64,000 bases of DNA from Flaccisagitta enflata (Eukaryota), in assembly GCA_965153355.1 (NCBI GenBank), contig OZ231126.1, positions 20,026,001-20,090,000 on the forward strand. Reading direction: 5' to 3'. Shown one piece after another: positions 61,870-64,000 of this stretch (position 1 is its first letter; the number at the start of each line of letters is the position of its first letter). The notes beneath the pieces are model-generated. The model made no database searches, was not told where the DNA came from, and worked only from the letters and a program-made list of their open reading frames with translations. The position numbers and the translations under genes are program-made.

Positions 61870-61937
61870 ATTGTAGTTTCCCCAATGGATACGAGGGAAG
61901 AGTGAAACTATGATCACGTTATGACGTTTCACTTTTT
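61870..61937 (+). repeat. 68-bp direct repeat, identical to 63288-63355 (putative split-repeat A1/A2)
   Basis: attgtagtttccccaatggatacgagggaagagtgaaactatgatcacgttatgacgtttcacttttt is present twice without mismatch. Confidence 0.95.
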
Positions 61938-62034
61938 TGTCTAGCAATGTAAGAGGTCGTATCGACGATTTTTTCTCTGCTAATTTTCTCGTCACTTTCC
62001 CGTTTGAATTTTTTCGCCCATTTTGGTCTTGAAG

Positions 62035-62889
62035 ATGCCGAGAGATGGCTTTTATAACGACAAGGAAGAGGAAGATACCGAACCTTACGCTTACGCGGAT
62101 GACTTTGATCAGGAGGAGGAGGAGGAGGAGAGAACCGTCCGCTTTGAGCGCGAACGCTCTCGCTCTCCCTCTCGAGAGTAGAGCCGAGCGCGTCACGGGC
62201 AAAGGCAAAACCGCTCTCGTGGTAGAACCGGACCCCGTGACAATGACGATGGTGAAGGCGGCGTGCGCTCAAGTCCGACTCGTTCTCGGCCACTTTCATT
62301 TGTCGGCCATTCTTTTCTCATGAGCGACGAAAACAACACCGCAACATCGTCAGCCGAAATTCCCGCCGACTTAGAAGAAAGAGTCGCGCTTCGCGTTTCC
62401 GAAACTGTAACAAACAGTCTACGAGAACAGCTACTTGGCGTCCTCAAAGAGAAAGAGGAGAAGTCCAATGGCTTTGCTAAAGAGGTGGAAGCACTCCAGG
62501 CAGCCCAGCGTCATGCATCTTTGCTCTCCGAGGCAACCGAGCTTCAGAGCGAGAGCGCTCAAAGGCAGTTTATCGCGTTTGCGAAAGTCAAATCAGGAGT
62601 CATCAACGCGAAACGGCTGATGCTGGCCGGTGACGTCTCCGGCACTGAATCAGAGTTGGCGGCGGTGGAGAAGATCGCCGATTTTTGCATCGACATGATT
62701 CGTCGAGCCGACAGCATGCCTGGTGGCTGGGCCGCCGCGAACCTCTACGAGAGAAAAGCTTCTGGTCAGGCGGATCAGAAAAATGACAAAATGTGGCGGT
62801 CCGCGGTAGAAGAATCAAGTGACGCCCGCAAAATGAAGGGTAGAACCAAAGGGAAAACTTATTCTGGGCAGTCAAACCAGCCCTTCAAG
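62035..62889 (+). CDS. gag: Retrotransposon gag-like ORF, 5' part (one in-frame TAG at 62179-62181)
   Basis: ATG 62035 (MPRDGFYNDKEEEDTE...RSRSPSRE*SRARHG...) is in the same frame as ORF 62263-62985. Gag-like sequence runs to ...SNQPFK, followed by AAG|gtaacc. Confidence 0.75.
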
Positions 62890-63394
62890 GTAACCCGCAC
62901 GTTAATGTCTGTCAATGTTGGTGACGCAAAGTCGACTCCGACTGGCTCTCGGCAGTTTTCTATTTCCGTCATGACTCATGAATGAGAGAGAGAGAGAGAG
63001 AGAGAGAGAGAGAGAGAGAGAGAGAGAGAGAGAGAGAGAGACACACACACACACACACACACACACACACACACACACACACACACACACACACACACAC
63101 ACACACACACAGACACACACACACACACTCACACACAGTTTTGCGTACATTTTCTTGGGGTTGGGACTGCTCTCACTCGTCCGCTCTGTTGGTCTTTGTG
63201 GTAGTTATGCCATTACACGCTTCCCACTTGTTTCACGATTTCCGAGTATTCATATTGGGGAAAGGGAGATTTTCCGCAGAGCGGAAAATTGTAGTTTCCC
63301 CAATGGATACGAGGGAAGAGTGAAACTATGATCACGTTATGACGTTTCACTTTTTCGTTGCTTAGTTACTGGGATACAAAAACATTGAGTTCAG

Positions 63395-63658
63395 TTAAGT
63401 GTCGTCTTATCTCCCAACCCACCCAACCCTTGTTCAGCGGGCACGCCTTCAAAGCCGCGATGGACGTGCTATTCGTGCGGCGCCCACACTCACATCGCCT
63501 TGGACCCAGCCTGTCCAAAAAGATCTCAGCAGCAGACGTATGGCCACGACCAACGCCGTGCAAATTATAACAGACAAGGAGGCCCCGTCCTCCATGGAGG
63601 CCCCGTCCTCCCGCAATATGGTGCCGGTTCGAGCCTCGCCTCACCGAGAACAAACTAA
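63395..63658 (+). CDS. gag: Gag 3' part with CX2CX4HX6C zinc knuckle
   Basis: Frame open from 63389 to the TAA at 63656: ...AGTPSKPRWTCYSCGAHTHIALDPACPKRSQQQ...SPRTN*. No ATG, so it is absent from the ORF track. Confidence 0.7.
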   Translation, partial: LSVVLSPNPPNPCSAGTPSKPRWTCYSCGAHTHIALDPACPKRSQQQTYGHDQRRANYNRQGGPVLHGGPVLPQYGAGSSLASPRTN

Positions 63659-64000
63659 TGGTAAGAGTGATCCTGTGGAGAATACTAGGGCCTCCAAGGT
63701 TTCTTTGGTAAAAGAAAAGTTTAGAGACGTCTTCAATGTAAGTAATGAGTGTAAGTTGGTGGACAGATCGGTCCTTGAGAATTTTTCTGATGACATAAGC
63801 GTTGCTGGTAGGTTAAGTAGACCTGCCTCAATAGAATTTTTTCGTGAGATAGGGGCTTCGGAGTTTTTGCTAAAAATCCTCAAAGTCGGTCATCATCCAG
63901 ACCTTATATCAGAAGTACCTCAAATGGAGTGCAAAAACAATGGCTCTTTTTATAAACATCACGATTTTGCCATATCAGAAGTAAAAAAGTTATTGGCTTC
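63438..64000 (+). CDS. pol: Pol (reverse transcriptase ORF) N-terminal region, open to the window end
   Basis: Frame open after the TAA at 63396 to the window end; first ATG at 63540; encodes SVAGRLSRPASIEFFREIGASEFLLKILKVGHHPDLISEVPQMECKNNGSFYKHHDFAISEVKKLLA. Overlaps the gag 3' part in a different frame. Confidence 0.82.

Follow-up and report, generated by a model that had tools for sequence, protein, structure and literature searches.

A PAT-like retrotransposon at the right end of the analysed window (64,000 nucleotides of Flaccisagitta enflata DNA from contig OZ231126.1) carries the internal copy of its joined ends, B1A2, within gag, between the gag core and the zinc knuckle. The segment that holds B1A2 is very probably a real intron, and the explanation considered quite probable as a whole is that of a PAT-like lineage with B1A2 in this intron, in which splicing parts mRNA from replication template. 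A B1-A2 junction within a spliceosomal gag intron had been proposed by the first-pass annotation; support now comes from GT/AG ends conserved in matching phase, and from a protein in public data that agrees exactly with the predicted spliced product.

The element extends from 61870 to approximately 67259, its right part lying past position 64000 (locus L021, which covers 60001-70000 in window numbering). Its parts follow in the order A1, gag exon 1, B1A2 segment, zinc-knuckle exon, RT/RH/MT, tyrosine recombinase and B2:

61870..61942, plus strand: A1, left terminal repeat, from repeat match; left end set by empty sites L036 and L037
62035..62889, plus strand: gag exon 1, from comparison with sister copies
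62890..63437, plus strand: predicted intron, GT...AG, 548 nt, with microsatellite, B1, A2 and C-rich tract
62984..63137, plus strand: (GA)n(CA)n microsatellite
63207..63289, plus strand: B1, internal right-end copy
63254..63304, plus strand: B/A junction, with a predicted fold; the AT at 63288-63289 marks the element ends
63288..63408, plus strand: A2, full internal left-end copy, with an initiator-like TCAGTT at 63391; putative promoter
63399..65747 (to 64000 in the window), plus strand: pol ORF, 782 codons, RT-RNase H-Dam-type methyltransferase
63413..63429, plus strand: C-rich tract, immediately 3' of A2
63438..63658, plus strand: gag exon 2, CX2CX4HX6C zinc knuckle, first Cys at 63467
63661..63665, plus strand: donor-like G/GTAAG, immediately 3' of the gag stop
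~65692-66660, past the window, same orientation: tyrosine recombinase ORF, opened by an acceptor-like CAG
67181-67259, past the window: B2, right terminal repeat, 97% identical to 63211-63289 of B1

Several of these features had been read from the letters by the first-pass annotation and are present in the sequence, i.e., the donor-like AAG/GTAACC at 62889/62890, the (GA)n(CA)n tract starting at 62984 and the perfect hairpin ATTTTCCGC-AGA-GCGGAAAAT at 63269-63289. The gap in gag is likewise real, its length of "about 500 bp" being corrected to 548 nt. The 68-bp repeat (61870-61937 = 63288-63355) is exact; it is the remnant of an A repeat which spans about 127 bp in sister copies. Both the B2 repeat predicted for the right end and the tyrosine recombinase ORF sought downstream were found, the latter upstream of the former.

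By structure and domains the element is a PAT-like retrotransposon of the DIRS order, the RT tree having been built without reference PAT and SpPat1. It combines split direct repeats (A1, B1A2, B2), RT-RNase H followed by a methyltransferase, a recombinase in the same orientation, a Gag zinc knuckle and a 2-3 bp core without target duplication. Its Dam-type methyltransferase domain sets it apart from Ngaro, for which absence of a methyltransferase and internal repeats 3' of the YR would be expected. Inverted terminal repeats with an ICR, as in DIRS1-like elements, are absent, all repeats being direct. The window pol matches RVT_1 with an E value of 2e-10, while its RNase H and Dam matches are below the Pfam cut-offs (Dam methyltransferase E 3e-4, compared with 2e-5 in L096), and pol has no conserved Met. 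The window recombinase shares 39% identity with the ORF of L096; the invariant R, K, HxxR, W and Y of the recombinases are common to the ORF of L126, which matches PF00589. Among the 27 copies in which the start of the recombinase ORF was located automatically, 26 begin at a phase-0 acceptor-like AG (in the other 10 of 37 copies it was not so located, with Gln or no clear site there). The frame is closed 0-25 codons upstream, and an upstream Met is present in 2 of the 27, together suggesting that the recombinase is probably spliced. The outgroup L126, with a whole gag and B1A2 at its 3' end, falls outside the well-supported (100/99) clade of elements with a 5' junction. A metagenome locus (L125; RT 50% identical) nests with family 7; immediately before its knuckle come the TCAGTT motif and the C-rich tract, and its contig stops upstream of these.

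Genome searches with a gag query (24 matches) and an RT query (75 matches) provided 47 split-repeat copies in 8 families, among which pol is ~42-60% identical. About a dozen further close RT loci were left out of this set, and the gag loci L072, L078, L079 and L082 are fragments without the junction region. In all 47 copies, and thus in each of the 8 families, B1A2 lies immediately upstream of the knuckle position within an equivalent of the segment 62890-63437, the presence of which in other copies had been named as a check of the original reading. A one-off event, whether by deletions in a tandem pair of copies, by insertion or by misassembly, would be in keeping with the degenerate state of the window copy and the microsatellite inside it, but its probability is negligible: the layout recurs on several contigs, the empty sites are clean, and homologues from other sources break at the equivalent place.

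Splice sites were chosen by eye in family alignments of the 45 copies with a knuckle (none was found in the other 2 of the 47). The segment has GT...AG ends in 45/45 copies, and in 42 of them the acceptor's phase brings the exon before it into frame with gag, the exceptions being the window copy, L083 and L105; at least 100 open codons lie upstream in the acceptor's phase in 38/45. Seven families have a phase 1 intron and one has phase 2. Segment length ranges from 220 to 548 nt, varies modulo 3 within families 1, 2, 3, 5, 6, 7 and 8, and is a multiple of 3 in 25/45 copies, which are not independent of each other. The knuckle frame runs into a stop inside the segment in every one of the 45 copies and has no Met upstream of the first Cys in 37 of them. 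Exon 1 encodes homologous proteins in all families, and these end at most about a dozen alignment columns apart. With a generic matrix, the chosen acceptor came first in 27 and second in 18 of the 45 copies, and other GTs scored above the chosen donor in several families. Outside the repeats, the intron is clearly less conserved than the exons in families 1 (0.64 versus 0.75/0.71) and 7 (0.72 versus 0.78/0.82) only, family 2 not following this pattern. Intron-less gag was not found in the genome, all 22 knuckle matches standing in open frames of 61-145 codons (24 candidates scored). When one poly(A) RNA run (about 6 in 100 read) was compared with the family-5 copy L096, 79 reads matched, partial and of low complexity, and coverage was absent.

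Further introns are apparent in gag. In families 3 and 6, an extra GT...AG intron interrupts a gag motif that other families have intact; a third intron site is present in family 4. A (GA)n tract occupies the equivalent place in 7/7 family-1 copies and is absent from the junction introns shown for other families. Since the extra intron of family 3 has its own (GA)n tract, like the family-1 junction intron, the microsatellite is tolerated filler and not part of the mechanism. The donor-like G/GTAAG behind the gag stop is confined to 6/7 family-1 and 11/11 family-2 copies. A rare GAG acceptor is required in family 7 and for the additional intron in families 3 and 6; well-pinned introns ending in GAG instead of YAG are located at 2021-2190 in L091, at 1990-2196 in L099 (oriented coordinates) and in L108-L112, and may reflect splice-site tolerance of the host. 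L086 may have a non-GT donor. At the 5' border of B1, CTTTGT is followed by AG within ~10 nt in most families (window 63193-63204), which could serve as an alternative acceptor or as a cis signal of some other kind.

The window copy itself is dead, as indicated by a premature stop (TAG at 62179 in gag), a 1-nt deletion, a shortened A1 and a frameshifted recombinase ORF. A1 has lost ~50 bp, leaving just the 68-bp match between A1 and A2; the loss includes the initiator-like TCAGTT, which is retained in A2 and in the sister copies. Relative to six sister copies, one base is absent shortly 5' of the donor, and for this reason a splice from 62889 to 63438 would enter the pol frame in the window copy. 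The six other family-1 copies have a phase 1 donor and a phase 1 acceptor, by which gag continues into the knuckle. In family-1-like gags from other sources the usual end is F/Y-Q-G followed by junk, which makes phase 1 the older state. An alternative acceptor at 63394 (phase 0), which suits the window copy, was rejected, since an in-frame TGA follows in five sister copies.

Joined Gag proteins are found in public data. A search with family-1 exon 1 retrieved P0159 (343 aa; JGI source, 1947-nt contig), residues 1-275 of which reach the donor codon, while residues 276-343 start at the acceptor of L024-L026 (91-98% identity; L026 carries a frameshift upstream). Judged by this alignment, P0159 is the predicted spliced Gag, exact to the codon. 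Among 1.84 billion representatives, a profile search yielded 674 matches, the best 150 of which were read. Among these 150, 134 span to the end of the gag core; 124 of the 134 have no knuckle behind it, many of them carrying F/L/V-rich tails, and 10 continue into a knuckle. P0018, one of these 10, reads F-R/G at the join, as predicted for family 2. It belongs to one cluster with P0151; the two are identical over 335 residues, after which P0151 reads into the intron and P0018 into the knuckle. A precisely joined product is thus present at the protein level in P0159 and in P0018/P0152. The contigs behind P0159 and P0018 are likely of RNA origin, intron-less DNA being the alternative. With E values near 1e-10 to 1e-9, seven of the 10 knuckle-bearing matches are distant, and these may, like L126, be relatives without the intron. 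A scan of IMG/VR revealed no relative.

These proteins also bear on the possibility of an unspliced spacer, i.e., that gag ends at the first stop of the segment and that an A2 promoter drives a second RNA for knuckle and pol. Such an organization would agree with A2 being a full left-end copy with an initiator-like motif, with the 124 of 134 homologues (best 150 of 674) that lack a knuckle behind the core, with the missing conserved Met of pol and with the presence on C8 of an A2-to-B2 unit without gag exon 1. It is nevertheless regarded as very unlikely, since P0159 and P0018 join both parts exactly at GT/AG and the knuckle frame has no Met in 37/45 copies. The truncated homologues are accounted for as output of splice-blind callers on genomic DNA; that the gene callers were splice-blind is evident from P0151 and others reading into introns. 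A function of A2 as second promoter for pol may still apply and is compatible with the intron.

The B/A junction of the window element can be folded into an outer stem of 10 bp, an imperfect spacer of ~5 nt, an inner stem of 9 bp and a loop of 3 nt. The same stem-spacer-stem-loop fold occurs in all 8 families with differing letters. It is unequalled by any other window in 8 of 12 elements, while the remaining four contain 1, 1, 10 and 12 windows that fold as well. In the automatic fold table a shifted hairpin was chosen in 9/47 copies (families 4 and 7), and its pair counts are accordingly not clean. The element ends correspond to the 3' end of the inner arm of the fold; reversed ICRs fold similarly, with the ends at the far spacer edge. 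The empty sites L036 and L037, which are copies of a host repeat, join 61871 to 67258 with a shared AT core and without duplication. This dispersed repeat surrounds the window element (window 61056-61871 and L021 7258-9950) and harbours an inverted-repeat insertion at L021 7570-8392.

Integron attC sites have a stem-spacer-stem anatomy, and the B/A junction resembles them in having an outer and an inner stem parted by a short unpaired spacer and closed by a small loop, in the crossover at the spacer edge and in keeping its pairing while the sequence varies. This likeness is a resemblance only, as the same arms may also be read as inverted binding sites in double-stranded DNA. The attC site is described as a folded bottom strand (PMC8876359).

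Within each copy, A1 and A2 as well as B1 and B2 are near-identical, and they are diverged between families, as expected if the ends are recopied from B1A2. Most families have TCA(G/C)TT, which we take to be an initiator-like motif, near the 3' end of A. AATAAA is present upstream of B2 in 12/41 copies and upstream of B1 in 0/41. No circularly permuted full elements were detected among the fetched copies, the 7 exact matches to the junction pattern all being internal family-1 junctions. Four of the 47 copies have a cut-short A1 with a direct duplication of the right flank at their left (L073, 271 bp; L075, ~74 bp; L077, 1652 bp; L106, 84 bp), and L075 and L077 start within 3 nt of the initiator-like motif. 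This suggests one-ended integration of linear cDNA.

Various derivatives of the elements were also observed. L022/L023 (G000:C8:14620853-14635808) is 99% identical to the window element and extends from A2 to B2 without gag exon 1 and B1, with three later insertions inside. The family-1 loci L024-L029 (2.7-3.9 kb) are non-autonomous, having retained gag, intron, junction and ends and lost pol and YR. L030 and L031 are solo A-B remnants of ~145 bp with identical flanks on two contigs, within a duplicated stretch. L158, L160 and L161 are fragments that lack gag exon 1 and reach from B1 (its edge or inside) across A2 and the knuckle. The family-4 copies L088 and L089 contain an inverted duplication of ~680 bp, comprising the pol end and YR start, upstream of B2. 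The P0169 cluster (3 public contigs, ~1077 nt) starts in sequence upstream of B2 and reads across B and A as far as the knuckle exon, i.e., over a B2/A2 join, which represents either a sub-circle or an assembly collapse of repeats.

For DIRS elements, an established model holds that the RNA is without both ends and that these are restored from the internal copy of the junction. The ICR of DIRS-1 is reported to be essential for retrotransposition, and the DIRS-1 cDNA to be single-stranded (PMC7192593). RNA of the present elements would start near the 3' end of A1 and end early in B2, and as it would thereby lack both ends, these would have to be copied from B1A2. Splicing would remove B1A2 and provide the RNA for full-length Gag, and a second splice would probably provide the recombinase mRNA. 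With B1A2 in the intron, spliced RNA could not give rise to a complete element, and unspliced RNA would serve as replication template. Such a filter would preserve the junction intron, and any intron riding on unspliced RNA, in every round of retrotransposition. Finally, the rebuilt B/A junction would be recombined by the recombinase into a short core of AT type, with no duplication of the target. The absence of intron-less copies and the retention of further introns are consistent with a step that separates unspliced template from spliced mRNA, and we infer that splicing is likely to act as this switch.

Alternatively, the intron may be real and the location of B1A2 incidental, with spliced RNA being copied by means of a B1A2 supplied in trans by DNA or by an unspliced RNA packaged alongside, or with splicing being inefficient where copying occurs. 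The reported ability of the DIRS-1 RT to work in trans and to copy a spliced reporter RNA (PMC7192593) would allow for this, as would intron-less DNA as the source of the P0018 and P0159 contigs. This alternative is considered unlikely, since intron-less gag is absent from the 22 knuckle matches and the 47 elements, B1A2 would be missing from any element made from spliced RNA, and a separate inverted-repeat clade has the same 5' placement.

This latter clade comprises DIRS1-type elements of the same genome (L113-L124; G000 C1, C5, C6, C7 and C8), in all 11 of which the ICR lies ~600-1000 bp inward of the left end. The first ATG frame of six of them (L115, L120-L124) stops at a G/GTRAG donor upstream of the ICR, and L118 has a similar donor there. 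The C-rich tract, common to all split-repeat families, also follows the ICR in all 11. Further intron-like gaps are present in gag past the ICR. A spliced Gag of the inverted-repeat type was not found; of 11 homologues retrieved, the 6 that were read are exon-3 pieces. The inverted-repeat elements form a separate clade in the tree, and the 5' placement of the junction may therefore have arisen twice. One may tentatively speculate, as a possibility still rather doubtful, that in this host lineage the split- and inverted-repeat clades each moved the junction into a gag intron as a switch between message and genome, and that the junction is an attC-like single-strand site. This would mean that introns survive retrotransposition, and one-strand exchange at an attC-like site would explain those copies which start where transcription starts and have long duplications on their flanks.

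In retroviruses and copia, unspliced RNA is the genome, and splicing removes cis signals or genes to make mRNA. The present elements differ in that the removed signal is the end-restoring junction and that the intron splits gag itself. Introns in some YR retrotransposons were reportedly noted by Goodwin and Poulter in 2004 and in Poulter's reviews. With the Pat1 group (PAT of Panagrellus, SpPat1 of sea urchin), the window element shares the A1...B1A2...B2 split direct repeats, the zinc-knuckle Gag, RT-RH-MT and the tyrosine recombinase. The position of the junction varies among PAT forms: B1A2 lies between MT and YR in the nematode Pat1 form and in kangaroo, in contrast to the gag intron of the window element, and is placed differently again in the echinoderm form, as given in a figure only (PMC4157794). 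Ngaro and VIPER share split direct repeats and solo A-B remnants (here L030 and L031), but Ngaro is without MT, of which the window element has a Dam-type match, and has B1A2B2 at its 3' end (PMC8547959, PMC9210276, PMC6681497). DIRS1-like elements share the internal end-to-end junction copy that rebuilds the ends and an AT-type core without target duplication, whereas their repeats are inverted instead of direct (PMC3266345, PMC7192593). In all 28 DIRS1-like elements tabulated in PMC3266345, the ICR is 3' of the YR motif, contrasting its position near the left end in 11/11 elements of the present genome. The full-text literature, searched outside of figures, Repbase and Poulter's reviews, yielded neither a DIRS-order junction within a gag intron nor an attC-like DIRS junction.

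Introns are usually lost from retrotransposons, and an essential cis element inside an intron would give a simple reason for keeping them. The intronic junction would provide these elements, a class about whose expression and replication very little is understood, with a built-in means of keeping translated and copied RNA apart, and the intron explains why gene callers truncate the gags of such elements. The conserved junction fold offers a concrete substrate for how DIRS recombinases may integrate a cDNA that is reported to be single-stranded.
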